Of a DNA stretch of 64,000 nt, positions 2,942 through 56,407 are shown piece by piece. Both the position numbers and the translations under genes were made by a program. Each line of letters begins with the position of its first letter. Position 1 is the stretch's first letter. Under the pieces are notes generated by a model that was not told the origin of the DNA, searched no databases, and saw nothing but the letters and a program-made list of their open reading frames with translations. The stretch comes from a virus, in the IMG/VR virus record IMGVR_UViG_3300037232_000040; one strand, written 5' to 3'.

Positions 2942-3052
2942 GCGAAGTACGCATCGTGGTGCCTCTCCTGAAATAAATATCAAAGTGGGTACGAACGGGG
3001 GATGACAGAGTGATGGCGTGGGAGCATTATGCAGACATCAGGAGGCAATCAG

Positions 3053-3394
3053 ATGGCAACTAAAACTTGGATTACCGACGCAAACAATAACCGCTGCTCC
3101 ATTGATTATTGGGGGTCGCGTGAAGCGGCACAGAAGGCGCTTGATAGCCTCAAAAACTGCTTCGACTGCACCGACTGCTCCGACTGCTTCGACTGCTCCG
3201 ACTGCACCGGCTGCTACCGCTGCTCCGACTGCTCCGACTGCTACCACTGCTCCGGCTGCTTCGGCTGCTCCGACTGCTCCGGCTGCTCCGGCTGCTTCGG
3301 CTGCTCCGACTGCACCGACTGCTCCGACTGCTCCGACTGCTACCACTGCTCCGGCTGCTTCGGCTGCTCCGGCGATATTGGTTTTACGGTGTGA
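3053..3394 (+). CDS. Cys-x-x tandem-repeat protein, copy 2 (~24 triplets)
   Basis: AGGAGG lies 7 nt upstream of the ATG at 3053. The first 109 nt are identical to 2..110. The repeat array and C-terminus then differ (ends CSGDIGFTV). Confidence 0.65.
   Translation: MATKTWITDANNNRCSIDYWGSREAAQKALDSLKNCFDCTDCSDCFDCSDCTGCYRCSDCSDCYHCSGCFGCSDCSGCSGCFGCSDCTDCSDCSDCYHCSGCFGCSGDIGFTV
3159..3372 (+). repeat. 9/18-nt tandem repeat of Cys-x-x copy 2
   Basis: Direct reading: tgcttcgac tgcaccgac tgctccgac ... Confidence 0.9.
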
Positions 3395-3657
3395 GTAGGG
3401 CAGGTGAACTTGCGTGTTGCAACGCAGATAGTTACGCTGCTAAGTGGTTGGAAAATATACAATTAATGAGTGTGTTACAGCACACAAACTTAGTGTTGCT
3501 AAGTTGCATAATGCCTTACGCAAACAGCCTGCCCGTAGTACCGAACACGCGGGGTACCTGCAATAGTTGCCAGCGTGGCGGCATTGTAGTCCTACAACAT
3601 GGTGGCGGAGTGCACGTGCTGGCCATGCACACGGTTGCCAGTGCACAGTGCCCCGGT

Positions 3658-3695
3658 AGCTATAGCATCCCGGAAGCTATAAGCATCCCGGAAGC
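3658..3695 (+). repeat. tandem 17/18-bp repeat in a non-coding leader
   Basis: agctatagcatcccgga is followed directly by agctataagcatcccgga. Confidence 0.8.
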
Positions 3696-3901
3696 CACCT
3701 ATGCCATACCACCCAACCAAGCCGTATGGCCCTGTGAGAATGTACCGGTGGCCCTAGCTACTGAAAAGCGCAAGCTATGCTCCGCCGTGCGCCACAGCAG
3801 CCCCACGGTAAGCGCACAGCCGGTGTATGCGCCTAACCGTACTACCAAGCCCTGCTGCGGTGGCAGTGGTGCGCACACCAAGGAATGCAAGGCGGTGCAG
3901 C

Positions 3902-4897
3902 ATGGCTAGCCCACACAGTGCCACCGCAGCCAAGCGCATACAGGCCGCACAGCGCAGCGGCAAACCGGCTAAGGCAGCTAAGGCAGCTAAGGCAGCTAAG
4001 CTGCTAGCCAAAGCTACAAAGCCCGTACCAAAGGTTACACACGAAATACTTGGTCCTGATATAGTTGAAGACTTCCTGCCTGAGTACCCACAGATAGGGG
4101 CTGGAATGCTGCTGCCTTCTATACTTACTGCGCCTACCGTAAGTAAGGCAGCACAGAAACGCGCTGAGAAAGCAGCGGCCCTGCAAGCCAAGGTTGCAGC
4201 CGCGCAGCAAACCGCTAAGCAGCGGTTGCTGGTAGTGGGCGACCACGTTGTAGAGTGCCGCCCATTTGCGGGGCAGCTTAAGCCCGAACCGGAGCCTGAA
4301 ACGCAAGTGGTGCCGCGTAAGCCTGCCACTAGGGTGGACGTTAACGTGTACCAAGTGTACCGAGACATTAACGGTGTGGCCTACTTGCGCGTAGGCCAAA
4401 GCAAAGACGGCGCAATGCTGGTAGTGAACAAGGGCTTTCAGGTGGAGCTAGTGGACATGCCCAACGACACCATCAAGGCTTTGAATCTACAGCCCGTAGT
4501 GGGTAGTAGCATATTGGATGCTGCAGAAAAGTTGTTGCACCCTATGAACGACCAAGCTACAATTTCTTTGCGTGCAAAAACACAACTGATTTTAATACTT
4601 GAAAACGAGGAGTTACAAAACATGGCTACCAAGAGCGTTGAAGCGAAGAACAAACCGGCGAAGTTTGCCAGTGTTAATGCCCCGGCTGCCAAGGGCAGCA
4701 AAGCCACCAAACCTGCCAAGGCTGAGAAGCCTGCTAAGGTTGAGAAGCCTGCTATGGTTGAGAAGCCTGCTATGGTTGAGAAGCCTGCTAAGGCCGCGAA
4801 GAATGCCACTAGCGGTGAACCAGCATCGCAACGCCCCAAAGCAGACAAAAACGACGAACTACGGGGCAGCCGCTTCGGCTACCTGTACAACAGCTAA
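3902..4897 (+). CDS. Lys/Ala-rich histone-H1-like protein (putative DNA-binding)
   Basis: ATG at 3902 within track ORF 3827..4897. N-terminal KPAKAAKAAKAAKLLAKATKP and C-terminal (EKPAKV/EKPAMV)x4 KAAK tails flank a globular middle. Confidence 0.55.
   Translation: MASPHSATAAKRIQAAQRSGKPAKAAKAAKAAKLLAKATKPVPKVTHEILGPDIVEDFLPEYPQIGAGMLLPSILTAPTVSKAAQKRAEKAAALQAKVAAAQQTAKQRLLVVGDHVVECRPFAGQLKPEPEPETQVVPRKPATRVDVNVYQVYRDINGVAYLRVGQSKDGAMLVVNKGFQVELVDMPNDTIKALNLQPVVGSSILDAAEKLLHPMNDQATISLRAKTQLILILENEELQNMATKSVEAKNKPAKFASVNAPAAKGSKATKPAKAEKPAKVEKPAMVEKPAMVEKPAKAAKNATSGEPASQRPKADKNDELRGSRFGYLYNS
4724..4795 (+). repeat. 18-bp x4 in-frame tandem repeat (EKPA[KM][VA])
   Basis: gagaagcctgctaaggtt / gagaagcctgctatggtt x2 / gagaagcctgctaaggcc. 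Confidence 0.9.
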
Positions 4898-43649: not shown

Positions 43650-44066
43650 TTGCACTCACAGTACTTAGTTTTATGTGGTGCTGCCCGCCGCCACAAACTA
43701 GTTCTCGAAAGGACACAAAAAGCATTGTCTCAACAAGAATGCACACTGCTAATACACATACCCACAGACTTGCTGTTGGCCCTAGATGCCGCTGTACAAC
43801 GTGCCATGTGCCTGCACCTGCAGCAGCCTGTACACAAACCTATAAAGGTAATAAACACACAGCAGGAGATAAACCAAGCCCTGTTATGGCTAAGGGCTGG
43901 CAGCCGCACCACTAGTGAAGTAAACATATGGCTACGCTTAAAGGCCCGCGAACGTGCTACCAACAGCGGTATACCACGCGTTAACCGCCAGCCCAGCCGC
44001 ACCAGCGTAGCACTGCAAATGTTGCGTACGGCGCTAAAACAAGACGAAGCGCAGCATGGCGCATAA
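43650..44066 (+). CDS. hypothetical protein, possible ribbon-helix-helix-like regulator
   Basis: Non-ATG start. LLIHIPTDLLLALDAAVQRA resembles an RHH strand-helix. Weak. Confidence 0.3.
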   Translation: MHSQYLVLCGAARRHKLVLERTQKALSQQECTLLIHIPTDLLLALDAAVQRAMCLHLQQPVHKPIKVINTQQEINQALLWLRAGSRTTSEVNIWLRLKARERATNSGIPRVNRQPSRTSVALQMLRTALKQDEAQHGA

Positions 44067-44280
44067 CTACACAACTGCTACCGCCGTGTGCCAACATTGC
44101 CAAGTAGAGCTGTACAAGGTTGCCGTACCTTTGTTGCAGGGCTATTGGCGTGACTTGCAGGGCGGCCGCTACTGTGCCCGGCCGGCCAACCAGTACAAGC
44201 TGCATGTACCCACGCCGTTAAGCGTAAAGGAAATTGCCACAGCGCCCACACACACATCACCAAATAAGTTTGCCAAATAG
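44056..44280 (+). CDS. hypothetical protein (74 aa)
   Basis: Track ORF with a CQHC pair. Confidence 0.4.
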   Translation: MAHNYTTATAVCQHCQVELYKVAVPLLQGYWRDLQGGRYCARPANQYKLHVPTPLSVKEIATAPTHTSPNKFAK

Positions 44281-44303
44281 GCACGACAAAGGGAACATAC
44301 ACC

Positions 44304-46406
44304 ATGGAGGTATTAAGTGCTACCGTGGGTAAGCCGCACAGCGTATTTGCAACTATTAAACAGGTAGAGCAGGCTATGCTAGAGAAGCTACATGCTAGCG
44401 CACTCAGCAGCCAAGACGCCCACCTGTTGCAGTACACACCTTTAACCAGCCAACAAGTGGCCACTGCCCACGCCACGTTGCCCGCACACCGGGCTGGGTT
44501 TGTGATTCCGTACTTTAGTATAAACGGCAAGCCTAGTAAGTTTTACCGATTTAGGTACTTGGAGTATGGCCACGACAGTGGGTTTGCTCGGCTAGTGGCT
44601 GCGCAGTTAAAACAGTTGCGCTACGGGCAGACCGTAGGCACCATGAATGAGTTGTATCTGCCACCCTACATAGACTGGGCTGCGTACAGCAAGGATGCCA
44701 GCAAGCCGGTGCTAATTACCGAAGGGGAATTAAAGGCTGCCTGCAGCACTAAGCACGGTGTGCCCTGCATAGGTTTGGGTGGAGTGTGGTGCTTTAAGGC
44801 CGGTGCCAGTGGTGTACATTTGTTGCCACAGTTTGCCGAATTTACTTGGAAGGATCGTGTGGTGTACATAGTGTACGATAGCGACGCGGCCAGCAACCAC
44901 CAAGTTGTAAAAGCTGAGAATGCGCTGGCCCGCGAGCTGTGTAATCTGGGCGCAGTACCAGCTGTAGTGCGTTTGCCCGCGCTACAGGCCGGTAGCAAGA
45001 CTGGGCTGGACGACTACATTGTGGCCCTTGGTACGGACAAATTAATGGAAGCACTATTGCTGCCAGCTGAGCCATGGCTGCGGGCAGCGGAGTTGCATCA
45101 GCTGAATGAGGAGGTGATTTACGTAGAAGAACCCGGCCTAATACTTAAGCTGGCTAACCTGCAACGCATGGCACCCCGTGCTTTTACTGACCACGCCTAC
45201 AGCACGCGCATATATCACGAGAACCAGGTTACGGCTACAACTACAAAGATGGTGGAGAAGAGCGCCGCTAAGGAGTGGCTTAAGTGGCCCGCGCGCGCCA
45301 CTGTGCACAAGGTAACGTACGCACCGGGGCAGCCTCGTGTAACTGCCAGCGGGGAGTTAAATGTGTGGAAAGGTTGGGCCGTGCAGCCTGCAGCGGGCAT
45401 TGTAGCGCCATGGACGCAACTGCTGGATTACTTGTTTGTCGGGGCTAAGTCCGATGATCGCACATGGTTTGAGCAATGGCTAGCTTATCCGCTGCAGTAC
45501 CCTGGTGAGAAGTTGTACAGTTGCTGCGTATTGTGGGGCAACCACCACGGCACTGGCAAAAGCGCTATAGGCTACACCATGTTTAAGATATATGGTGATA
45601 ACAGCACGGAAATAGGGGACCGCGATTTGTACAGCACCCATAATGAGTGGGCTGAGAACAAACAATTTGTCATGGGGGATGAGATAACCAGTGGCGGCGA
45701 GAACAAACGTAGTAGTGCTGACCGCATGAAGAGCATGATAACACAACGTTTGTTGCGGCTAAACCCCAAGTATATTAGTAGCTACACCGTGCCCGATTGC
45801 TTGAACTACTACTTTACCAGTAATCATCCGGACAGTTTTTTTATTGATGACAATGATCGCCGTTATTTTGTACACGAGGTTAAGGGGCAGCCGCAGCCCC
45901 GTAGTTTTTACATTAGTTATTTTGATTGGTTGGCGCAGAATGGCGCAGCGGCGCTGTTTTATTACCTGCTTAACCTGGACATGACAGGTTTTGATCCGGC
46001 TGGCAAAGCCCCGAGTACTAGCAGCAAGTTGGACATGATAGATAGTGGCCGTAGTGACTGCGCTAGCTGGGTAGCCATGCTAAAGGAAGAACCCGACCGT
46101 GTGTTGCAGGTGGGTGGTAAGCCGCTACACTACCAACTATGGACTACCACGGAGCTGCATGGTATCTACGACCCACAACGCGAAACCAGGGTAACGGCCA
46201 ATGGGTTGGCTAGAGAATTAAGACGTGCCGGGTTGTGTAAAGTGTTCGATGGGCAAGGTGTACCTACTACCTTGGGAGGCCGCCAGCGTTTGTGGGCCAT
46301 ACGCAATGCCGATAAGTTACTGCCGTTGGATAGTGGTAAGTTGGGCAAGATATACGATCAAGAAAGAGAGGCCGGTGGTGCAAGAAAAAGACAAACCAAA
46401 TTCTAA
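44304..46406 (+). CDS. bifunctional primase-helicase-like protein (Toprim/DUF3854-like N-domain plus P4/D5-type P-loop NTPase)
   Basis: VLITEGELKAAC...VVYIVYDSDAASN...GLDDYI is Toprim-like. ELNVWKGW and the Walker A GNHHGTGKS are D5/P4 helicase-like. Confidence 0.8.
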   Translation: MEVLSATVGKPHSVFATIKQVEQAMLEKLHASALSSQDAHLLQYTPLTSQQVATAHATLPAHRAGFVIPYFSINGKPSKFYRFRYLEYGHDSGFARLVAAQLKQLRYGQTVGTMNELYLPPYIDWAAYSKDASKPVLITEGELKAACSTKHGVPCIGLGGVWCFKAGASGVHLLPQFAEFTWKDRVVYIVYDSDAASNHQVVKAENALARELCNLGAVPAVVRLPALQAGSKTGLDDYIVALGTDKLMEALLLPAEPWLRAAELHQLNEEVIYVEEPGLILKLANLQRMAPRAFTDHAYSTRIYHENQVTATTTKMVEKSAAKEWLKWPARATVHKVTYAPGQPRVTASGELNVWKGWAVQPAAGIVAPWTQLLDYLFVGAKSDDRTWFEQWLAYPLQYPGEKLYSCCVLWGNHHGTGKSAIGYTMFKIYGDNSTEIGDRDLYSTHNEWAENKQFVMGDEITSGGENKRSSADRMKSMITQRLLRLNPKYISSYTVPDCLNYYFTSNHPDSFFIDDNDRRYFVHEVKGQPQPRSFYISYFDWLAQNGAAALFYYLLNLDMTGFDPAGKAPSTSSKLDMIDSGRSDCASWVAMLKEEPDRVLQVGGKPLHYQLWTTTELHGIYDPQRETRVTANGLARELRRAGLCKVFDGQGVPTTLGGRQRLWAIRNADKLLPLDSGKLGKIYDQEREAGGARKRQTKF

Positions 46407-46731
46407 ATGTTGCTACTCGTTGGTGTTTGTGTTTACCCCACAACTAGATAAGTTGGTGCTGCTTACTAACAGGATTTGGTTACGCAGTGAGGGAATTGTC
46501 GCGCTTGTGAAGATAAAGGCATTACGGCATGGTGGGTTGTTAAACGGGCCGGGAGGTAGGATGCATGCGTTTGAAGTCGCTCATCTTGCGCAGGTCGGCT
46601 CGCAGGCGCTTGTCAAATTCCTGCACGACCTTGTCGGGGTCTCGTTTGAGTTGCTCCGCGCGGTCCTCGGCAAGTTTGGTAACTGTGGGTTGCGTCGAAC
46701 ACCAGTAACGCGCCCCGTCCTGATAAAGGGA

Positions 46732-46761
46732 ATTATATACATGAGTCGCTAACCCTTTCAA
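46732..46761 (-). promoter_or_regulatory. sigma70-like promoter facing left (TTGAAA-N18-TATAAT)
   Basis: Read on the minus strand: ttgaaa gggttagcgactcatgta tataat. Confidence 0.4.
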
Positions 46762-46780
46762 AATAAAGCGAATAAAGTTC

Positions 46781-46809
46781 TTGACAAAATGCAGCGAGTT
46801 ATCTACTAT
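46781..46809 (+). promoter_or_regulatory. sigma70-like promoter facing right (TTGACA-N17-TACTAT)
   Basis: ttgaca aaatgcagcgagttatc tactat lies 40 nt upstream of the AGGAG-ATG of 46849. Confidence 0.5.
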
Positions 46810-46848
46810 AAAGACAGTTAAGCGGCATCCAGCCGCAGGAGAAATCAG

Positions 46849-47439
46849 ATGACAGCCACTCACACGACCCCGACCGGAAGCACCATCACGGTAGAGGGGA
46901 GCAAGCTCACAATCATCACCGCCGCCGGAAAGACCATCAACCTCAAATTGCAGCGCACCACCAAGCGGCTCGACAACAAGGCCGGATACCGAGTGATAGG
47001 CGATAACGTCTCGGTGCCTGACATCACAGCCGACTGGGTTGATGCTCAAGTCGCCGCATCCGAGCAGGCCGCGCAAGATGCTCTGGAGGCCGCCGTCCCT
47101 GGCATCCAAGAAATGATTCGCTTGAGCGATGCCGCTTACAACGAGCGCGAGCGCTACAGCCGCGAATTTAACCGCATGATGGACGACGAGTCGAATGACG
47201 GATGCCGCCCGCCGAAAGTCGAGAATAAGAGCTTTGCAGAGCAACTGGCTGCCATGATCGCCGCCAATCCCCGCGCTGCCCTGTACCTTAAGGCCAAACA
47301 GCAAGATGAGAGTGCGCACTGGGCCGATAACACTGGCAAAGGGTCGGCTGGTCGGAAAGCTATGGACATCCTTGCGGCTGGCGGATCGATTGCCGACGCG
47401 GAAGCGGCGATTGCTGTACGTCGCGAATTTATCGACTAA
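46849..47439 (+). CDS. hypothetical protein (196 aa), first gene of accessory cassette
   Basis: AGGAG RBS and GC3-rich codon usage. No motif recognised. Confidence 0.6.
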   Translation: MTATHTTPTGSTITVEGSKLTIITAAGKTINLKLQRTTKRLDNKAGYRVIGDNVSVPDITADWVDAQVAASEQAAQDALEAAVPGIQEMIRLSDAAYNERERYSREFNRMMDDESNDGCRPPKVENKSFAEQLAAMIAANPRAALYLKAKQQDESAHWADNTGKGSAGRKAMDILAAGGSIADAEAAIAVRREFID

Positions 47440-47466
47440 CTCACAATCACTGAGAGGAGCCCTAAA

Positions 47467-47709
47467 ATGAGAGCCACTGTAATCATCGACAAAAGAGCCA
47501 ACCATTACGTCGCGACCGTGAGCGGCAAATTCGGGGGCGGATTTATGGGAGCGCACGTCGGAACCACCCCAGAGCAGGCTGCCGGATTCGCAGCAAGGCA
47601 AATGGTCAGATATGCTTGTAGCAATAGCGAGGGCGGCGATCTGGTTGCGCCCGCCGAAGTGCTGCAACTTGTCCCGGATAATTTGCGATCTGTGCCAGCG
47701 CGAACTTGA
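47467..47709 (+). CDS. hypothetical protein (80 aa)
   Basis: GAGGAG lies upstream. Track ORF. Confidence 0.5.
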   Translation: MRATVIIDKRANHYVATVSGKFGGGFMGAHVGTTPEQAAGFAARQMVRYACSNSEGGDLVAPAEVLQLVPDNLRSVPART

Positions 47710-47790
47710 TCTCCACCACAGCCCACTCCGGGCTTGAGGAGCGTCGGGGCTGGAACCTCGGGCCGGTACGTAACCCGGCATGGAGTCTTT

Positions 47791-48165
47791 ATGAGCAAGA
47801 GCACGATCAGTACCTTCCAGCTTTTCGAGATGTTCCCGACGCCTGAGTCGGCACGGTTGTACCTCGAATCGCGCATCTGGCCCGATGGTCCGTTCTGCCC
47901 TGAGTGCAAGAGCCGTGAGCGCATCGGTAAGCAGCCCAAAGTTGGCTTCTATCGCTGCAACGCCTGTAAGCTCGATTTTACGATTCGTACTGGCACCATC
48001 TTCGAGCGGTCGCACATCCCGCTTCACAAATGGCTTTACGCCATGTATCTGCTCGTCACTGCTCGCAAGGGTATTTCCTCTCTGCAACTTGGAAAGGAAA
48101 TTGGAGTTACACAGAAATCCGCGTGGTTTATGCTGCAACGGCTCCGCGAGGCTAGAAACGGGTGA
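47791..48165 (+). CDS. IS1595-family transposase N-terminal Zn-ribbon + HTH domain only (no DDE domain), paralog A
   Basis: FPTPESARLYLESRIWPDGPFCPECKS...FYRCNACKLDFTIRTGTIFERSHIPLHKWLYAMYLL..ARKGISSLQLGKEIGVTQKSAWFMLQRLR matches the IS1595 zinc-ribbon/HTH module. The ORF stops after 124 aa. Confidence 0.75.
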   Translation: MSKSTISTFQLFEMFPTPESARLYLESRIWPDGPFCPECKSRERIGKQPKVGFYRCNACKLDFTIRTGTIFERSHIPLHKWLYAMYLLVTARKGISSLQLGKEIGVTQKSAWFMLQRLREARNG

Positions 48166-48229
48166 GACCATGTTGCAGTGTGCCGCGCGTGAGTTTTTCG
48201 GGCGCGCTCCGGATGGTGTCAAAGCCCAA

Positions 48230-48264
48230 GAGCCGGAAGATGAGGAGTCCTGATATGAAACCGA
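48230..48264 (+). repeat. 35-bp exact repeat (partner 1444..1478)
   Basis: Identical string spanning a stop codon, RBS and start. Confidence 0.9.
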
Positions 48265-49055
48265 CATTCTTTGACCGCAAAGCAGTTGTCTACAAGCTGA
48301 CCGATGCCAACTCCCAGACCTACGACAAAACTCAATGGGGCGAAGGCGTGACCCACAGGACAAACGGAACCGATGAGCTGTGCGGGCCGGGATGGTTACA
48401 TGCTTATACCCATCCGTTGCTTGCGGTTTTCCTCAATCCGATACATGCGAATTTTGTCAATCCGATTTTGTGGGAAGCGGAGGCCGACGGGAAAACTCTT
48501 TCCGATAAAGGACTAAAAGTCGGCTACTCCGAGATCACCACAATACGCCAAATCCCGTTACCCGTTGTAACCACTTTCCATCGAATCCGCTTTGCTATAC
48601 TTTGCGCCCAATCCGTGTATAAAAACTCGGATTGGCTTGCTTGGGCCGACAACTGGCTATCCGGTAAGGACCGCTCGGCGGAGGCGGCGGCGGCGGCGGA
48701 GGCGGAGGCGCGGGCGGCGTGGGCGGCGGAGGCGCGGGCGGCGTGGGCGGCGAAGTGGGCACCGGGGGCGGCGTGGGCGGAGGCGCGGGCGGCGTGGGCG
48801 GCGAAGTGGGCACCGGGGGCGGCGTGGGCGGAGGCGCGGGCGGCGTGGGCGGCGAAGTGGGCACCGGGGGCGGCGGCGTGGGCGGCGTGGGCGGCGGGGG
48901 CGAAGTGGGCGGCGGAGGCGGCGGGGGCGGCGGCGCGGGCGGCGGAGTGGGCGGCGGAGGCGGATATAGACCTTATCGCAATCGCACAGCAGGTCGGCGA
49001 ATTCGATACTGACGTTCCGAAGGTCATTTGCGACAATTTTGCTGGCAGATATTGA
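48255..49055 (+). CDS. two-part protein: conserved-looking N-domain plus Ala/Trp tandem-repeat region
   Basis: ATG at 48255. N-domain reads YKLTDANSQTY..TQWGEGVTH..LCGPGWLHAYTHPLLAVFLNPIHANF. It is followed by (EARAAWAAKWAPGAAWA)x3 within a ~95-aa A/W/E/R tract, then a unique tail. Confidence 0.6.
   Translation: MKPTFFDRKAVVYKLTDANSQTYDKTQWGEGVTHRTNGTDELCGPGWLHAYTHPLLAVFLNPIHANFVNPILWEAEADGKTLSDKGLKVGYSEITTIRQIPLPVVTTFHRIRFAILCAQSVYKNSDWLAWADNWLSGKDRSAEAAAAAEAEARAAWAAEARAAWAAKWAPGAAWAEARAAWAAKWAPGAAWAEARAAWAAKWAPGAAAWAAWAAGAKWAAEAAGAAARAAEWAAEADIDLIAIAQQVGEFDTDVPKVICDNFAGRY
48676..48962 (+). repeat. extremely GC-rich tandem repeat, core 51 bp x3 (48729..48881)
   Basis: gaggcgcgggcggcgtgggcggcgaagtgggcaccgggggcggcgtgggcg starts at 48729, 48780 and 48831. 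Confidence 0.9.
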
Positions 49056-49115
49056 GCAAGCATACCAACAGCTTGACGTTATTGTTGAGCGTATTAAACG
49101 GAGGGTACAAATCTC

Positions 49116-49319
49116 ATGAGTGTTATTGCAACCTGTATACATTGCAGTAGCGTGCTTACTATTGTCCCGCTTGGTCCGGCTACTGGTGGTTTGCTGCGGC
49201 GTGCCTTTGCTGCTACATGCGGCACCTGTCAATCGGGGTACACCATTGAGATACAGCAGAGAGTGGCCAGCCCACTAACCGCTGCAAGGCTAAGCGAAGT
49301 AAAGAACAGGAACCACTAA
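49116..49319 (+). CDS. hypothetical zinc-ribbon-like protein (67 aa)
   Basis: CIHC ... CGTC pairs. Track ORF. Confidence 0.45.
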   Translation: MSVIATCIHCSSVLTIVPLGPATGGLLRRAFAATCGTCQSGYTIEIQQRVASPLTAARLSEVKNRNH

Positions 49320-49371
49320 CCATGCTAACTAACATTGAGATGCAGCTTGGTAAGAATGGGAGGTTGCTAAA

Positions 49372-49776
49372 ATGAAGATTCCTCGTACAACCGTGCCCCG
49401 GCCTACCAGGGTTAAGCCGCGTTGCGTCACATACTACGAGCTGTTGGCCGCGCCACCGGGCAGCACCGTAGAGGAGCTACACATCAGTTTTAAGCGCTTG
49501 GTTGTGCTGTGGCACCCCGACAAGGCTACAGGCAACACGGCAGTGTACCAACGTATAACACAAGCATGGGGTGTGCTTAAGAACTCGCAACTGCGTAGGG
49601 AGTACGATGCCCGGCTAACCCTGCAGGGTAGTCAATGTATGTATTGCCAAGGCAAAGGGCTGCGCAGTATGCAGCAGAGCCTTACGGTGCGTCTGCAGCA
49701 CATGTGCGATAAATGCAACGGCACTGGGCAGGCCGACGGTGGGCTGCTCGCTAACGAAGTGTGGGAGTGTGTGTAA
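49372..49776 (+). CDS. DnaJ-like protein: J-domain plus CxxCxGxG zinc-finger repeats
   Basis: YYELLAAPPGSTVEELHISFKRLVVLWHPDK contains the HPD motif. CMYCQGKG and CDKCNGTG repeats follow. Confidence 0.8.
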   Translation: MKIPRTTVPRPTRVKPRCVTYYELLAAPPGSTVEELHISFKRLVVLWHPDKATGNTAVYQRITQAWGVLKNSQLRREYDARLTLQGSQCMYCQGKGLRSMQQSLTVRLQHMCDKCNGTGQADGGLLANEVWECV

Positions 49777-49835
49777 GTGAAAAAAACCTGGGCAATCTCC
49801 AACAGCAAGTTGGAGAACTGGCAGGGTTGGAAATA

Positions 49836-50132
49836 ATGGCTTTCAAGGTTTACACGGTGGCGCACCCGGTGCAGCGTGTGCTTAATAAGGAAAACAAGTT
49901 GTGGTGCTACGCTTGCCGCCGTAGCAAGCACCAACAGTGTGCTGGTAGGCGCAGGCTGGGCCATGGGCAGTGGGCCGTGGGGCGCGAAAGTAGGAGCATA
50001 GATGCCAGCAATCAAGCTCCGTGGGACGTTGTGGCGGACAACCACATTAAAGCAAGTAACTGCAAACGCTGCCCGCGGTGCGGTTTGTATGTGGGCACTG
50101 ACGGAGAATGTCGCAGTGTGTATTGTGCCTGA
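49836..50132 (+). CDS. hypothetical Cys-rich protein
   Basis: ATG at 49836 within track ORF 49761..50132. Contains CYAC and CKRCPRC. Confidence 0.4.
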   Translation: MAFKVYTVAHPVQRVLNKENKLWCYACRRSKHQQCAGRRRLGHGQWAVGRESRSIDASNQAPWDVVADNHIKASNCKRCPRCGLYVGTDGECRSVYCA

Positions 50133-50171
50133 CAACCTGACTAAACCGTGCACTTGCACGTGTGTGCTATA

Positions 50172-50669
50172 ATGCGTGGAAGGAGTTACCTGATTGTGAA
50201 GCATCGTAAACAAACTGTGGTAAAGGGGGTTGAGATAGTTCCGCAGGGCGCGATACTGCGTCAGCACTTCTTCCGTGACTGCAGCCCGGTAGCTGTAAGC
50301 GATCTGGTGTTGTGCATGGCCACTGGCACAGTAATGGATGTAGCGCGTATACATGTGGACTTGTTGCCCGCCGTGGTGTTGCTGGCCACCATAGGTCTGC
50401 GTGCGTACCACCAGCAGATTATTAACGACTATACTGAGCTACTGCAGCGCATGGTGGATGTAAGCCGTGAACATGATTTTACGCACCGTACGTTTTATCA
50501 CCCCCAGCTGCACTTGGCTTTTGCTATTTGTGACCGTGGGCCAAGCGGTGAGTTCGTGCTGGACACAGTGCCGGAAGCTAGCTACATGTTCCAAGTGTAC
50601 GAGGAGCTTATCAATGCCACATCTGAGGAATTGTTCAAAGGAACTAAGGGAAAAATCATCGCCGACTAA
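50172..50669 (+). CDS. hypothetical protein
   Basis: ATG at 50172 within track ORF 50148..50669. The N-terminal half is of uncertain coding quality. Confidence 0.35.
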   Translation: MRGRSYLIVKHRKQTVVKGVEIVPQGAILRQHFFRDCSPVAVSDLVLCMATGTVMDVARIHVDLLPAVVLLATIGLRAYHQQIINDYTELLQRMVDVSREHDFTHRTFYHPQLHLAFAICDRGPSGEFVLDTVPEASYMFQVYEELINATSEELFKGTKGKIIAD

Positions 50670-50810
50670 GCTGCGCCGTTTTGCTAATGATCGTAAGCGC
50701 AGTGTCGGGCGCAGGCGCTACAGTTTGTTTCTAAAAATGGCCCGTAGACTTAAACGTGTAGGTCGCTGGGCCACATACAGCAATAAACAGAATAGCCAAA
50801 ACCAAGGAGA

Positions 50811-51047
50811 ATGTCAGTGAAAATTGCGCATTACGTTCTGTTGTACGTTCTGATTATCTTGCTGTTCTACAGCAGCTACCAGGAGCATGCACACCTCACC
50901 GCCTCCGAGAACCAGACCATGGAAGCGCTCAGGGCCACCCGTAACCTGCACGATTCGTTCAAGATGCTGGAAGCGGCAAACGCTCAGAACTATCAAACGG
51001 CGCGGGGTTGTGTGGCGACTTTGCGGAGTATGACGGCTGGGCGATAA
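50811..51047 (+). CDS. small membrane protein
   Basis: AAGGAGA RBS. TM segment IAHYVLLYVLIILLFYSSY. Confidence 0.45.
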   Translation: MSVKIAHYVLLYVLIILLFYSSYQEHAHLTASENQTMEALRATRNLHDSFKMLEAANAQNYQTARGCVATLRSMTAGR

Positions 51048-51236
51048 TGAACTGGAGCGCCCCGGAGAAGCGTGGTCAGGATTTCACGCGAATTGCTGGC
51101 AGCCAAACCGGGGTGAAAACCGTAGGCCACGCCAACGCGCCGGGATTTGGAAACACGGCTGTTGTAGCGCCTCCGGCATCGGCGCCAGCAGCTTAACCGG
51201 GCGGGCTTCCGTGGAAGCGGAGGCCCAACCAAGTTC

Positions 51237-51512
51237 GTGCGAAACATGAAAAAAGATACGGCAAGACAGAGGGTTCGTGACGCCGTTAGGTATGGAAAGA
51301 TCGCGAAGCCGGAAAAGTGTTCGGTTTGCGGAGCCATAACAGAGCCATCGAAACTACACGGGCACCATCACAAGGGTTATGAAAACCCCCTAGACGTGCA
51401 GTGGGTATGCGTACATTGTCACAACGTCAAAGATCGGGAGTCCATTGTAGCCAATGGATTCCGAATGAGGTCAAACCTGATTCCCGGAGCTAGTCACCTA
51501 GTGAAGGGATAG
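51237..51512 (+). CDS. small HNH-like zinc-binding protein
   Basis: CSVCG...LHGHHHKGYENPLDVQWVCVHCH follows the pattern common in small phage HNH-type proteins. Start is GTG 51237 or ATG 51246. Confidence 0.6.
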   Translation: MRNMKKDTARQRVRDAVRYGKIAKPEKCSVCGAITEPSKLHGHHHKGYENPLDVQWVCVHCHNVKDRESIVANGFRMRSNLIPGASHLVKG

Positions 51513-51697
51513 GGATTGATAATCGTGCGCGCGGCGTGGAAGGGACACGCAATAAAAGTGTTGAGGTCGGGGCCGAAAGGTTCAGGGGTTAAGGCCGCCG
51601 TTTCATCGAGCACCTTTGGCGGGGTTCCGCTATACCCTAACCGACTGGAGCCGGTATCAAGCCCGGCCCGCACGATTCAACCAAGTGGAGTGATATA

Positions 51698-52219
51698 ATG
51701 GCTGAACATCACGTTCGTATTCGAGGTACGAAGATGACCCGCAAACGCTCTGTAAAGCGTCATGCAGTTGTTCAGCCACGCGATAACTCTATCCAACTCA
51801 GCTTGCTTCCGCAAGCCCCGCTCCCGTCATCCAAATTCTGGTATAGACGTAGCAAGGCGCAAGGTTTATGTGGATGCGGCAAAGAGCTTCCCATTGGTAA
51901 GGGCGCACAATGCGCGCAGTGTCGTAGGCGAGGCCGGGAGTATTGCGCCCGCCTGAGAAAGGAAACCGTTTCGGCCTATGGCGGCAGGTGTCAATGTCCT
52001 GGAGGGTGCGACGTTGATATTGCGGAGTTCCTATCTATAGATCACATCTTTAACGACGGGAAAGCACACAGGAAGAAAATTGGAATGAGCACGGCTATCT
52101 ATCGTTGGTTGAAGCGTGAGGGATGGCCGAAGGATCGCTTCCGGTTGCTCTGCTACAACTGCAACTTTGCAAGGGCTAAGTACAAAGTTTGCCCGCATGA
52201 ATCGACGGTAGCAAAGTGA
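51698..52219 (+). CDS. HNH endonuclease
   Basis: YGGRCQCPGGCDV....LSIDHIFNDG ... LLCYNCNFAR is an HNH core. Confidence 0.75.
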   Translation: MAEHHVRIRGTKMTRKRSVKRHAVVQPRDNSIQLSLLPQAPLPSSKFWYRRSKAQGLCGCGKELPIGKGAQCAQCRRRGREYCARLRKETVSAYGGRCQCPGGCDVDIAEFLSIDHIFNDGKAHRKKIGMSTAIYRWLKREGWPKDRFRLLCYNCNFARAKYKVCPHESTVAK

Positions 52220-52261
52220 ACTCAACACAGCGGGCGGAGGCCGAACCATAGGAGGGAAAGC

Positions 52262-52735
52262 ATGTTGAAAGAGCTAGATAGTTACGATTGGGAAGAGGTT
52301 TTTGGCGAGGGTGGCGGATGGAACTGTACCCCGATCACTCCGAACCGATGGTTTGTTGCTCGCGGCGGTTGCGACTATAGCGGGTGGGGCTGCCAAGCCA
52401 GCAACTCCGGCGACGTGGCGTCTTCACAGGACGATATTATCCGATTCGGTATGAGCGACGGCGAGCGCGAGCGTTTCGGACCTGCTGAAATCCGCGCCGC
52501 TATCGAGGCTGCGGTTCCGTGCGGGCGCACCGACAATGGTTGCGCAGAGGACATTGGCGCGTGGAAAGCTGGAGTTCCGTCGGAGATTCAACAGCGATGG
52601 GATGAGGAGTTCGGCACTGCATATTGGCAGCTTGTCGCCAAGCATCCCGGCATGGAGTCCAAGAATCTGTCCCGGCACCTCGGAACGCTTGGATTTCGAT
52701 ACCTCGGAAGCAGCTTATCAGTGGTCAAAATTTAG
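52262..52735 (+). CDS. hypothetical protein with SYDWEE and CDYSGWGC motifs
   Basis: Track ORF of 157 aa. The motifs recall an uncharacterised family seen in actinobacterial and myxobacterial genomes. This rests on memory only and is unverified. Confidence 0.5.
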   Translation: MLKELDSYDWEEVFGEGGGWNCTPITPNRWFVARGGCDYSGWGCQASNSGDVASSQDDIIRFGMSDGERERFGPAEIRAAIEAAVPCGRTDNGCAEDIGAWKAGVPSEIQQRWDEEFGTAYWQLVAKHPGMESKNLSRHLGTLGFRYLGSSLSVVKI

Positions 52736-52860
52736 GGGAATTACATACTTAACTCCCGTCGAGCAGAAAAAAGATGAAAATAATGCTTGACAAGTGTGAG
52801 GGAGTAAAGTATATTAAGAACAGATCGAACAAGAGGTGCCAACCTCAAAGGAGCAGGAAA

Positions 52861-53379
52861 ATGACGAACTACACCGAAACCGAACTCGCTGAGATCATCA
52901 ACACGCTGTGCGAACAAGGTGTTAAGCCAACCGACGACTTTACCGCTGATGTTGGAAAAGATTACGGGTACGTCGCGGCCTATGAACTTGCATCCAGTAA
53001 AGGGTATGCGATTGCCTACGGCGATAATGGCCAAACAAATTATGCGATTGCCGAGACTGCCGACGATTTGGGCGATTGGCTCATCAGCCAAGATTTGAGC
53101 GGCCTCGACCTGCTCCGAAACCGTGCAAACGTATTCGGGATAAAATCCGTAGATGCTGCCGCAGAGAACACCACGAATCCTTGTGCGGTACTCATCAGCC
53201 GTGATTATTACGGACCCCACTCAGAGATCAGCGTGGCGATGGAAGATAATGGCCAGCGCGAAGCCGAGTTTGACAACGCAGAAGCCGCTCAGGTGTGGAT
53301 AAACGAAGCCGAAGAAGGCACCTATTACCTATCCCACAATGAGAGCGGTCGCCCCGAATACAAAGTGGTCGAACTCTAA
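52861..53379 (+). CDS. strongly acidic hypothetical protein (172 aa)
   Basis: AAGGAG RBS with ATG at 52861. Many Asp/Glu and few basic residues. Confidence 0.55.
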   Translation: MTNYTETELAEIINTLCEQGVKPTDDFTADVGKDYGYVAAYELASSKGYAIAYGDNGQTNYAIAETADDLGDWLISQDLSGLDLLRNRANVFGIKSVDAAAENTTNPCAVLISRDYYGPHSEISVAMEDNGQREAEFDNAEAAQVWINEAEEGTYYLSHNESGRPEYKVVEL

Positions 53380-53465
53380 GCTCCGCCGCGCCCTCAACCT
53401 TGGGTAAGCGGTGCGTCCCGCATGGCAGCGGGGGCCGGTACGGAACCCGGCAGAAGGTTAAAGCC

Positions 53466-53885
53466 ATGAGTAAAAGCACAATCAGCACATTCGAGCTTTT
53501 CCAAATGTTCCCCGATGAGGATACGGCGCGGACATACCTTGAGGCGCGATTGTGGCCGAACGGCGCGGTATGCCCAACTTGCGCAAGCAGCGACCGCATA
53601 ACTCCACGCCGGAAGGGTTTTTACCGCTGCAACGCCTGCCAGATTGACTTTACGATTCGCACCGGAACCATCTTCGAGCGGTCGCATATCCCCTTGCATA
53701 AGTGGCTCTACTCCATGTATTTGCTCGTGAGGGCCCGCAAGGGTATCTCTTCCATGCAACTTGCTAAAGAGATCGGGATTACCCAAAAATCTGCATGGTT
53801 TATGCTCGGTCGGCTCCACGAGGCTAAGCCTCGCGGAGGCGCGGTTGACGGCAAGCGGTTAACCTACGCGAGGTTGATTCGATGA
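53466..53885 (+). CDS. IS1595-family transposase N-terminal Zn-ribbon + HTH domain only, paralog B
   Basis: Same module as 47791..48165, about three quarters identical at nt level by eye. It ends ...GKRLTYARLIR, which resembles the extreme C-terminus of full-length ISXO2-like transposases and suggests an internal deletion of the DDE core. Confidence 0.75.
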   Translation: MSKSTISTFELFQMFPDEDTARTYLEARLWPNGAVCPTCASSDRITPRRKGFYRCNACQIDFTIRTGTIFERSHIPLHKWLYSMYLLVRARKGISSMQLAKEIGITQKSAWFMLGRLHEAKPRGGAVDGKRLTYARLIR

Positions 53886-54027
53886 CCAAGCCACCCGAAA
53901 TACTCAATAAGATGGCCGATTTGGTCCTTACCTACCGGCCACCATCAAAGGTCAAGCCACTGCGCAAGCGGAAGATCGCAGCGAGTAGGCGAGTCAAAGA
54001 AAACAAACAAGTGATATCAATGTGTGA

Positions 54028-54228
54028 GCCGGAGTGAAGTCCGCGATAACGAGCTGCAGATTCGTCGTAGCTTTCCGCATAGGCGAAGGCATCGTGCTCC
54101 CATGTCAACAGCGCCAGCCCGGCGCGAACAGCGTTCAGGAGAACACCGGTAGTCTGCAGGCGCGGCAGGTAAAGGTAGCGGCCAAAGTCCTCGACCAGCT
54201 GCCGGATCGCGACGTAATTTCCACGCCA
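54028..54228 (-). pseudogene. fragment resembling the C-terminal region of a DUF499-type ATPase (defence-island protein family)
   Basis: WRGNYVAIRQLVEDFGRYLYLPRLQTTGVLLNAVRAGLALLTWEHDAFAYAESYDESAARYRGL lies inside track ORF 53932..54363. There is no upstream ATPase region. Recognition is from memory only. Confidence 0.35.
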
Positions 54229-54262
54229 TTGTGTTGGGGTTGACACAAGGAGAGTCAGTGAA

Positions 54263-54424
54263 ATGACAGACTGGATGCTTCTTTTTGGGTGGATTTTGGG
54301 GTGGGTTATCCTTCTCTGCATCAACGGCAATCTGTTGCGAGTTAGCCGGGAGTTAAAACGCATGAACGATAACCAGGCAGCCGTGCGAATTCGCCAAGAG
54401 CTGAAACAAGGGAGGCAGTTGTGA
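54263..54424 (+). CDS. small membrane protein (53 aa)
   Basis: AAGGAGAG RBS. Own translation: MTDWMLLFGWILGWVILLCINGNLLRVSRELKRMNDNQAAVRIRQELKQGRQL. The stop overlaps the next GTG start. Confidence 0.35.
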   Translation: MTDWMLLFGWILGWVILLCINGNLLRVSRELKRMNDNQAAVRIRQELKQGRQL

Positions 54425-55413
54425 GCAAGAAACTGGAAAAGAAGTTGGCAACGTTTGAGGACGCTGCCAAAATTGAGGTAGCCCGCTTAACTGTATTAAA
54501 CGAGAACCTGCTGTGCTTGCTTATTAAGGTGGTGCAGGACGTAGGTTATACGCAGCACTGGCTAGACGCTGCTGGCAATCCGTGCAGCCAAATGCACCCA
54601 CAGGCCAAGCTAGTAAACAACGTATGGGACGGGCGTAAGTTTCTGTGCATTAGTAAACTAGAGTTTATGGGTGTGGACACTACGCGCTGGGCCATTGAAA
54701 CCAAGCACCAAGAAACGCAGCCTTACATGTACGTTATCCTTACACCGCATGAACCTACCACTGTCGAGCCGCTACCTGTGGCACTAGCCAGCGGTGGCTA
54801 CAGTACCGTGCAGCAGCCCATTACCAGCCCAGCGCAACCTACGGCCATGCGGTGCGCCGTGCACGGTATGTACGGTAATGTGGGTGCGTACTGTCCGGAG
54901 TGCGACGAAGAACGCGCTCAGCGCATTGTGTGCCGCAATGTGTTGCGCTACAAGCGTGATGATGGTGTGGTGGTAGATACCGTCGAAGAAGCTGCGTATG
55001 GAGATAGCGGTTATCACCTTATCCAGTGCGGGCACACTGCTAAGCAGCACATATACGGCGCTGGTAGGTGCAAGGTATGTGAGTGCACTGAGTTTTTATG
55101 CGCCCACAATGAGCGCAGGGTCAACTCAGAAACTGGAGATATAGGTTGTATGAACCCGGTTTGCGGCTGGCTTATAACCAAGGAACAGGCAATGGAGATG
55201 GCACAGCGCGGTCAACCACTGCCAGTGCAGGTCAGCGCGGCAGAGCTAGAAGCTGCACCTGCATGTCCTAGTTGCGGCAGCACAGGACGTAGCGAGCGGT
55301 TGTTTGTATTGGTAGACAACGCAGCGCACAGCTGTGAAAATGTGTGCACTGATGCGTGGCATGAAGAGACCGAAGGGGAACCAAGTGCGGATAACGAAAG
55401 AGACAGCAGCTAA
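54421..55413 (+). CDS. hypothetical Cys-rich protein (330 aa)
   Basis: Track ORF with several CxxC pairs in the C-terminal half. Confidence 0.55.
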   Translation: MSKKLEKKLATFEDAAKIEVARLTVLNENLLCLLIKVVQDVGYTQHWLDAAGNPCSQMHPQAKLVNNVWDGRKFLCISKLEFMGVDTTRWAIETKHQETQPYMYVILTPHEPTTVEPLPVALASGGYSTVQQPITSPAQPTAMRCAVHGMYGNVGAYCPECDEERAQRIVCRNVLRYKRDDGVVVDTVEEAAYGDSGYHLIQCGHTAKQHIYGAGRCKVCECTEFLCAHNERRVNSETGDIGCMNPVCGWLITKEQAMEMAQRGQPLPVQVSAAELEAAPACPSCGSTGRSERLFVLVDNAAHSCENVCTDAWHEETEGEPSADNERDSS

Positions 55414-56407
55414 GGCCGCAACGCCAAAAGCGGAGAAGGTCGCACCATCAACCTACCTCGCAAAGCTGAAGCAAGAAAGGATTGATCTCGATAATGAGTG
55501 CGAAGCCTTAGACCAACGGATCAGCGATATGGACGATAAGCGGAAGCTGTTGTTGCGGCGAAAGCAACTTATCGCGAAAATCAACGAAGAGCAGACCTAC
55601 CTCGCAAAGCTGAAGCAAGAAAGGATTGATCTCGATAATGAGTGCGAAGCCTTAGACCAACGGATCAGCGATACGGACGATGAGTGGAAGCCGCTGTCAG
55701 ACAAAAAGGCGTTGCTGAACTTGCGGCGGAAGCAACTTATCGCGAAAATCAACGAAGAGCAGAAAATCATTAGTTATGAAGAGCAATGGGTAAAAACTCC
55801 GCGCACCGAACCTAAAAACAAGATCATTATCGACTCCTATAAAAATAAGTGGGACTACCAGCGTGAGTACTTTATGAAAGCTCTGGAACCCGCGCGAGAT
55901 GCTTGGCTAGATCACGCCAATGAAATTTGCAAGACGGGTGAGCTGTGGGATTTCGAGGAACTCGCGAAGGCGGTTGTCTGGAATGAGTGCAATGAGAAGT
56001 TCCGACCGGAGGAATTTCCCAACGAGTTTATCCGCATCGAAGTTCCCGGCGCTGGCAAGTATTTAATCAAGAACACGGCCGCCGCAATTTACAAGATTCT
56101 AAAATCCGCGCCCACTGCATTCTCGAAACCCAAGTGCAACCAGCATCCCGAGGGATATCACAAAATCCTGGGCGAGAACGCCAAACAGGGGCGCCCCAAC
56201 CCAGAACTCAACCCTGAGAAGCTAATCTTGTTCCATGAGAAGCAGATCGCAGAACTTCGTGACAAGCGCAAGAAACTAACAGACGCAAAGGACGCCTCCT
56301 TCAATATAGACGCAAAGGACGTCTTCAATATAGACGAACAGATCAAGCAAGGCGAGAGCGACTTACGAGAAGCTCGCAATCTCAAAGGAGGATTCAAGTG
56401 CGTATAA
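55385..56407 (+). CDS. coiled-coil protein with an internal 144-bp tandem duplication
   Basis: GTG at 55385 gives VRITKETAAKAA, paralogous to the start of 56398. An alternative ATG is at 55361. TYLAKLKQERIDLDNECEALDQRISD occurs twice. Confidence 0.55.
   Translation: MRITKETAAKAATPKAEKVAPSTYLAKLKQERIDLDNECEALDQRISDMDDKRKLLLRRKQLIAKINEEQTYLAKLKQERIDLDNECEALDQRISDTDDEWKPLSDKKALLNLRRKQLIAKINEEQKIISYEEQWVKTPRTEPKNKIIIDSYKNKWDYQREYFMKALEPARDAWLDHANEICKTGELWDFEELAKAVVWNECNEKFRPEEFPNEFIRIEVPGAGKYLIKNTAAAIYKILKSAPTAFSKPKCNQHPEGYHKILGENAKQGRPNPELNPEKLILFHEKQIAELRDKRKKLTDAKDASFNIDAKDVFNIDEQIKQGESDLREARNLKGGFKCV
55451..55762 (+). repeat. tandem duplication, unit 144 bp (second copy carries a ~24-bp insertion)
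   Basis: acctacctcgcaaagctgaagcaagaaaggattgatctcgataatgagtgcgaagcc... starts at 55451 and 55595. Confidence 0.85.

Follow-up and report, generated by a model that had tools for sequence, protein, structure and literature searches.

The window, a 64-kb stretch of viral DNA, contains two copies of a short IS1595-like gene, whose products (P0001 for copy A and P0002 for copy B) share 75% identity. Each copy lies just downstream of a predicted 73-nt structured element, and each element in turn abuts the stop codon of another gene. The features to which we refer below are as follows.

46721..46825, + strand: conserved promoter block (GGGAATTATATAC... TTGACA-N17-TACTAT); it heads the rightward unit in which copy A lies
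47467..47709, + strand: 80-aa ORF from the ORF list, function unassigned; its TGA stop (47707-47709) abuts element copy A
47709..47781, + strand: predicted structured element copy A (covariance model R1, 79.7 bits, E 8.5e-17)
47713-47716 with 47736-47739, + strand: helix P1 of element copy A, from covariation
47721-47724 with 47730-47733, + strand: helix P2 of element copy A, from covariation
47744-47749 with 47756-47761, + strand: helix P3 of element copy A, from covariation
47762-47766 with 47775-47779, + strand: helix P4 of element copy A, the hairpin of the original prediction
47791..48165, + strand: IS1595-like gene copy A (P0001), 124 aa, truncated
51650..51667, + strand: GCCGG-N8-CCGGC hairpin, a pattern match inside a 185-nt non-coding stretch (51513-51697)
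52774..53379, + strand: gene for an acidic 201-aa protein; its TAA stop (53377-53379) abuts element copy B
53379..53453, + strand: predicted structured element copy B (R1, 88.1 bits, E 1e-18)
53434-53438 with 53447-53451, + strand: helix P4 of element copy B, from covariation
53466..53885, + strand: IS1595-like gene copy B (P0002), 139 aa, with an in-frame internal deletion that has removed the DDE domain
53882..54037, + strand: ORF for a small, strongly basic 51-aa protein; its ATG and the stop of copy B overlap (ATGA)

It had been proposed from the sequence that both IS1595-like ORFs encode only a zinc-ribbon/HTH head and no DDE domain, and Pfam, NCBIfam, PHROG and tblastn searches all agree with this. 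PF12760 (Zn_ribbon_IS1595) scored 35.4 bits in P0001 and 43.9 bits in P0002, above its cut-off of 25.4 bits. Both proteins matched just positions 1-50 of the 215 in NCBIfam NF033547, and both spanned positions 13-129 of the 344 in phrog_25593. The DDE domain PF12762 was absent from both proteins, and tblastn with full-length relatives found no DDE remnant in any of the six frames of the 64-kb window. The predicted structure of P0002 has three helices after the zinc ribbon (moderate confidence, pLDDT 64); a fold search with this model gave no match below E 0.2, its hits being weak resemblances to zinc ribbons and winged HTHs. A PDB sequence search gave no match, the 80-aa ORF upstream of element copy A matched nothing in Pfam or PHROG, no GenBank phage record resembled positions 44000-56000 of the window, and no tRNA or tmRNA was found. 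A literature search found no work on N-terminal-only IS1595 proteins in phages.

A scan of IMG/VR with P0001 returned 303 relatives. Among the best 80 of these 303 loci, most have an ORF of 302-311 aa, and the full-length relatives carry a complete PF12762 (DDE_Tnp_IS1595) domain with an E value of about 1e-45 (for instance L031 and L001). The full-length genes in related phages encode 305-308 aa and are up to 98% identical to the window proteins. The exact P0001 protein is present on 35 contigs and the exact P0002 protein on 31, and the representative of the 90% cluster of P0002 is itself 305 aa long. When the first 121 codons of copy A are aligned with the 308-aa genes of loci L001-L008, the proteins are 94-98% identical and the DNA just 82-85%. 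Homology between copy A and its full-length relatives stops at 48152/48153, that is, at codon 121, after which copy A has three foreign codons (R-N-G) and a stop.

Copy B has a different history. Its syntenic full-length ortholog is the 305-aa gene at L031, which, like copy B, is preceded by the acidic gene and the leader and followed by the small ORF. Compared with L031, copy B has 513 nt (L031 bases 3151-3663) replaced by 15 nt at a junction located at 53826-53840. The net loss is 166 codons, in frame, and takes out the whole DDE domain. What remains downstream is native: the last 14 residues (the C-terminal tail AVDGKRLTYARLI), the stop codon and the small ORF that overlaps it as ATGA. Because related phages hold full-length genes, including a syntenic ortholog of copy B, these alignments show both window genes to be deletion derivatives of a full-length IS1595-like gene.

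The full-length gene does not travel alone. In nearly every locus, as in copy B at 53882, its stop codon overlaps the ATG of a small basic ORF of 45-51 aa (3924-4061 in L001), which has the conserved motif L-D-x-I-x-D-x-V-L-x-Y-R-P(-K) followed by a K/R-rich tail, and for which we found no annotation in Pfam, PHROGs or Atlas. When L001 is compared with L002, L004, L005, L006 and L007, which sit in contexts different from its own, the DNA that they share begins precisely at the ATG of the IS1595-like gene and ends with the small ORF (3001-4066). Full-length relatives, for which the original prediction had suggested searching the host, do exist in phages, with a complete DDE domain, but they have no inverted repeats: none surround the gene in L001, L031, L069 or L019. 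Pairs of full-length genes give dN/dS values of 0.01-0.13, in both halves of the protein. Given the sharp block from ATG to small ORF, the ATGA overlap and the low dN/dS of the full-length pairs, the aligned loci show that the IS1595-like gene and the small basic ORF form a conserved two-gene phage module without IS ends, and this module is resident in many Acidobacteriaceae phages and prophages. The promoter block at 46721-46825, roughly 100 nt, is 90-98% identical in L001-L008, where the coding DNA is only about 83% identical, and in many other phage loci its motif GGGAATTATATAC...TTGAC immediately precedes the IS1595-like gene.

This arrangement both resembles and departs from that of the IS1595 family. 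The window proteins have the same N-terminal zinc ribbon and HTH as the ISXO2-like transposases of that family; the DDE domain is complete in the full-length phage relatives and missing from the window copies. IS1595-family insertion sequences make target-site duplications of 8 bp. In contrast to such elements, the phage genes have no terminal inverted repeats, and the conserved block extends from the ATG to the coupled small ORF. They also occupy syntenic positions and have diverged to a dS of about 0.5-1 under strong purifying selection, unlike an IS that has recently been hopping.

We turn now to the leader that the two window genes share. A 21-mer at 47760-47780 recurs at 53432-53452 with one mismatch, where none would be expected by chance, and it is conserved above the surrounding leader. 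That this 21-mer occurs twice, 20/21 identical and able to fold as GCCGG-loop-CCGGC, had been predicted and was borne out; the hairpin corresponds to helix P4 of a larger fold. In the upstream regions of the relatives, conserved sequence extends 5' of the hairpin. RNAalifold, applied to an unfitted MAFFT alignment of 11 sequences, returned a structure of four helices; of its 19 pairs, 12 show compensatory changes. Further members of the family were collected by a pattern scan of IMG/VR and then with covariance model R1, giving about 35 non-redundant elements at 54-91 bits; within the window, R1 finds exactly two copies, even with its filters off. Across 36 element sequences, 95.2% of the cells were paired, compared with 37-44% in slid controls, 16 of the 19 pairs changed on both sides, and none of 500 shuffles matched the alignment on any of the measures. 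The stem of P4 alone takes the compensating forms GCCGG/CCGGC, GGCGG/CCGCC, GTCGG/CCGAC, GCCGA/TCGGC and GAGGG/CCCTC among the relatives. Altogether, the alignment shows that the 21-mer belongs to neither gene and is predicted to be helix P4 of a 73-nt, four-helix structured element.

While the stems co-vary, hardly any change is seen in the loops NUGGNA and UACGNAAC or in a GCGU linker, a constancy that in the pattern-derived set is partly an effect of ascertainment and that holds too in the 11 seeds found through the protein. The fold contains one U.G pair that never varies and a second pair that is G.U in most members, so that the structure fits the + strand only, and the element is always co-oriented with its flanking genes. 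Because of these strand-specific G.U pairs and the constant co-orientation, the element probably acts as RNA, and the alignment indicates a structure at the RNA level. The folding energies of the single window sequences are no better than those of shuffles (z-scores of +0.09 and -0.99), and hence the case for the fold rests on covariation; the minimum-free-energy fold of copy B recovers P2, P3 and P4. Searching Rfam 15 gave no match on the element at E<=10, and two chance-level matches elsewhere in 46500-54500. We also found no published work on such a 73-nt RNA in a literature search. That the element is an uncatalogued structured RNA, found in phages of Acidobacteriaceae, is in our view well supported.

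Several other structures were considered and set aside. The element is not an intrinsic terminator: P4 is followed by a purine-rich sequence and a Shine-Dalgarno (SD) motif, with no U-tract. In the window copies, the P2 loop, which is pyrimidine-rich and anti-SD-like, can pair with the downstream SD (ACUCC/GGAGU and AACCUU/AAGGUU). As a pseudoknot this was rejected, the cognate loop-SD combinations being no better than permuted ones (p 0.12-0.16) and better only than shuffled loops; of 35 elements, only 13 have a motif resembling an SD within 16 nt. The minimum-free-energy fold of copy A pairs the CUCC after the stop codon with the SD downstream, but such a closing helix found no support (p 0.6-0.8), and covariation assigns these CUCC bases to P1. 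Finally, a similar hairpin had been reported ahead of a putative HNH gene at 51698. A hairpin does exist there, at 51650, but it is no member of this family: R1 gives it only 6.2 bits (E about 8), and the region folds unremarkably (z-score +0.36). The HNH assignment found no support either, as the gene at 51698-52219 (173 aa) has no match in Pfam, PHROG or NCBIfam, even at E<=1. Its protein has Cys pairs and a DH...N...CxxC-like stretch.

The most regular property of the element is its placement. In 29 of 36 cases its first position coincides with the third base of the stop codon upstream, in three more it falls within 3 nt of that base, and information content climbs sharply at the T of that stop codon. 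The genes on either side vary. Those upstream fall into 24 clusters, among them the acidic gene family, which also occurs in L031, L069, L073, L077 and L123; those downstream are diverse and start 4-84 nt after the element. The same element subtype can be found beside different genes on both sides. In L129, for example, the upstream gene of copy B and the element are both present, and homology breaks about 7 nt past the element. In two loci (L312 and L313), the acidic gene ends in TAA-GCTCC as in the window, with the remaining element missing or reduced to a short CCGC..GCGG remnant, a pattern that points to breaks within the element's 5' part. These two were the loci available for an empty-site comparison through the acidic gene; both were ambiguous, and no clean footprint was found.

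An IS1595-like gene follows about a quarter of the elements in the unbiased set, in roughly five independent contexts, which is far above chance. Nevertheless, each can occur without the other: the element is missing from the closest full-length relatives of copy A and from two complete relatives that do have the gene, and three complete phage genomes contain it but no IS1595-like gene. We therefore regard gene and element as independent modules that often adjoin. The idea that the 21-mer is a former terminal inverted repeat, or an autoregulatory site of the gene, was not borne out, as it precedes many unrelated genes. As an IS end it was rejected on three grounds, namely that full-length genes have no repeats, that the conserved block begins at the ATG, and that the element occurs without the gene. 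Related complete genomes (58-64 kb, with terminal repeats) hold zero or one copy of the element, which would make it dispensable.

In a stringent pattern search of 185,579 species genomes there were seven hits, all in Acidobacteriota MAGs (Granulicella, Terracidiphilus, Acidobacteriaceae and Terriglobia) and all among runs of small co-directional ORFs. Within Acidobacteriaceae, 4 of 151 genomes have the element, at 1-2 copies each. Across IMG/VR and these species genomes, the element was found in phages and prophages of Acidobacteriota only. Since the bacterial hits are confined to those MAGs and lie among small co-directional ORFs, we take the element to be borne by phages and prophages, with Acidobacteriaceae as the likely host group. 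On contig C1 of one Granulicella MAG (G006), two copies lie 9.5 kb apart in opposite orientation (1615461-1615532, + strand, and 1624944-1625015, - strand), in one bacterial chromosome and presumably in one prophage.

What might such an element do? Most likely, it is a cis-acting mRNA element at cistron junctions, that is, a module of the polycistronic message that would work where one cistron ends and the next begins. A terminating ribosome occupies some twelve nucleotides downstream of the stop codon. P1 starts 3-4 nt past the stop, and a ribosome terminating there would have to melt P1 and all or part of P2. Because P1 is so close to the stop codon, we infer that the fold senses whether the upstream gene is being translated, or requires that it is. 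Its output would most likely be mRNA processing, mRNA stability, for instance of the upstream message, or expression of the neighbouring cistron. The frequent presence of the IS1595-like module just behind the element could mean that the element marks a junction at which accessory modules are exchanged.

Intercistronic structured elements are known from other systems, including the REP/BIME sequences of enterobacteria, the RNase III sites of T7 and the PeSL cassettes of T4-type phages. Like these, the 73-nt element is a conserved fold that lies between cistrons, near a stop codon and among variable accessory genes. It differs from them in having four helices and invariant loops rather than a simple palindrome, in occurring at 0-2 copies per genome with no Rfam family, and in having the stop codon itself as its 5' edge in about 80% of cases. 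Another point of comparison is put of phage HK022, a processive antitermination RNA in which two adjacent stem-loops act on RNA polymerase in cis. At about 70 nt, with two directly adjacent stem-loops similar to P3 and P4, put is comparable in outline; the 73-nt element has in addition a P1/P2 domain, is linked to a stop codon rather than a promoter, and is dispensable among close relatives.

The resemblance to put raises the prospect that the element is an RNA bound by a protein or by polymerase, either an antitermination signal of that kind or the site of a phage RNA-binding protein. P3 and P4 are adjacent hairpins without a linker and could stack, and a bound partner would fit the near-invariance of the loops and of the GCGU linker over co-varying stems; in general layout, too, the element is like put. 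An essential antitermination device would not, however, be expected at zero or one copy in close complete phages, nor to be tied to stop codons instead of promoters, and we consider this reading quite improbable. Alternatively, the element could work at the level of DNA, as a recombination joint, a cassette boundary or a single-stranded mobile element landing after T(A/G)A. Such roles would account for the scattered occurrence of the element and for the exchange of genes on either side of it. They accord with its variable presence among related complete genomes, with the subtype that has different flanking genes, with the break about 7 nt after the element in L129 and with the IS1595-like modules behind it in about five independent contexts, and the stop-codon edge could be the sole neutral landing site in a tightly packed genome. 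Yet the copies are old and diverged, with compensatory changes, and not near-identical as they would be after recent transposition; they lack terminal repeats; the triplet in front of them is not constant (TAA, TGA or TAG); and three element-bearing complete phage genomes contain no Y1 (IS200-type) transposase. Moreover, L312 and L313 keep TAA-GCTCC and then diverge, without a clean footprint of excision or insertion, and a DNA-level role leaves the invariant loops unexplained. We thus hold DNA-level roles, whether as exchange joint or as mobile element, to be less likely than the cis-acting mRNA element, and quite improbable in themselves.

The second question concerns the short proteins. The original prediction took the two N-terminal-only copies for domesticated DNA-binding regulators; a related version would have them inhibit the full-length protein of co-infecting relatives. 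A dN/dS comparison and a survey of N-terminal-only homologs had both been proposed, and both were carried out. The dN/dS of the head against its relatives is 0.03-0.07, far below 1, a value that derives mostly from the full-length lineages and not from the time after the deletions. For copy A against L001-L008 it is 0.03-0.04, at a dS of about 1 or more, and copy B differs from L031 by 18 synonymous and 5 non-synonymous changes in 120 codons. These values support very strong purifying selection on the head, as estimated from the aligned codons. In the survey, short forms with an intact head recur across IMG/VR and metagenome samples; among the metagenome matches listed, no allele was identical to the window copies.

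The short alleles in these data are frequent and heterogeneous, with 3' truncations at many positions, and the 90% cluster of P0001 alone has more than 10 different C-terminal variants. Frameshifts in relatives had been named as a sign against domestication, and they do occur (L041 and L123), alongside short alleles with an intact head. There are also in-frame nonsense alleles (L266, L273, L283, L305 and L310) and an out-of-frame internal deletion (L064). Nine independent internal deletions are in frame and retain the native tail (copy B, L009, L059, L263, L295, L298, L300, L304 and L307), against one or two that are out of frame, an excess of roughly p 1e-3 under an expectation of one third. 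Every short allele keeps an intact head, in which zinc ligands and HTH are invariant. Two pairs of proteins, P0002/P0003 and P0014/P0019, each share a deletion junction and differ at 14 residues, every one of these in the variable N-terminal part, with the conserved half spared. P0001 and P0126 share the RNG tail and are two conservative changes apart. At L008 (3001-3570) we observed a complex allele in which a 133-aa head is fused out of frame to DNA of the small basic ORF and then continues into a second native-type tail (RLTYAGLTA); P0128 has the same odd middle segment.

These observations pull in two directions. The in-frame excess, together with the restriction of differences to the variable part of the head, argues for some constraint on the short proteins, and the enrichment of in-frame deletions and the diverged variants of two junction classes are also compatible with a retained function. 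Domestication would likewise agree with the invariant zinc ligands and HTH, with the low dN/dS, with the near-identity of P0001 and P0126 and with the presence of the exact proteins on 31-35 contigs. But the in-frame excess has another sufficient explanation in the ATGA overlap with the next ORF, a reason for keeping the frame that is independent of the protein, and the low dN/dS was accumulated mostly by full-length lineages. P0003 is visibly mosaic and looks recombinant rather than like a diverged descendant. Truncations end at widely differing points, alleles with a frameshift or a nonsense codon are common, and C-terminal-only remnants (2 of 24 loci in a search with the C-terminal half) have the same order of frequency as N-terminal-only ones (about 11 of 80 loci). 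The original prediction is supported as to N-terminal-only derivatives, selection on the head, recurrence and in-frame bias; the domestication that it proposed is weakened by the frameshift, nonsense and C-terminal-only remnants.

Truncated transposases that act as inhibitors or regulators are familiar from InsA of IS1, OrfA of IS911, Inh of Tn5 and the KP derivative of the P element. By analogy, the window proteins would be like these in being a DNA-binding head without a catalytic domain, and KP, like copy B, arose by an in-frame internal deletion. InsA, OrfA, Inh and KP work at the ends of an active element resident alongside them, however, and the 64-kb window has neither IS ends to bind nor a DDE-bearing copy to inhibit. 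Weighing all of this, we regard the domesticated regulator or inhibitor as rather unlikely, and rate above it the reading of the short proteins as non-catalytic remnants that are possibly still used. For copy B, the frame may have been kept either because the zinc-ribbon/HTH mini-protein is still in use or because in-frame translation is needed for the ATGA-coupled downstream ORF.

When genes and leader are considered together, the best explanation, and one we think probable, is that the IS1595-like genes are deletion-derived and that the 21-mer is part of an RNA element acting at a cistron junction. A bolder combination is also conceivable. Here the element would be a new phage RNA device, its fold read or reset by the ribosome that terminates at the abutting stop codon, so that what becomes of the downstream cassette (RNA cleavage, stability or expression) would be tied to translation of the gene upstream, and it would serve in addition as a landing or exchange point for IS1595-like modules that lack IS ends and whose zinc-ribbon/HTH mini-proteins persist as functional products. 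As a whole, we consider this combination unlikely.

The window genes and their relatives form a natural series in which a transposase-like phage gene repeatedly loses its catalytic domain and keeps its DNA-binding head, a series that bears on how transposase heads are recycled in phages. The RNA element is the more useful result. It is well supported, uncatalogued and specific to the phages of Acidobacteriaceae, soil bacteria that are abundant but whose phages have hardly been studied, and its unusually strict placement at the stop codon makes it directly testable.
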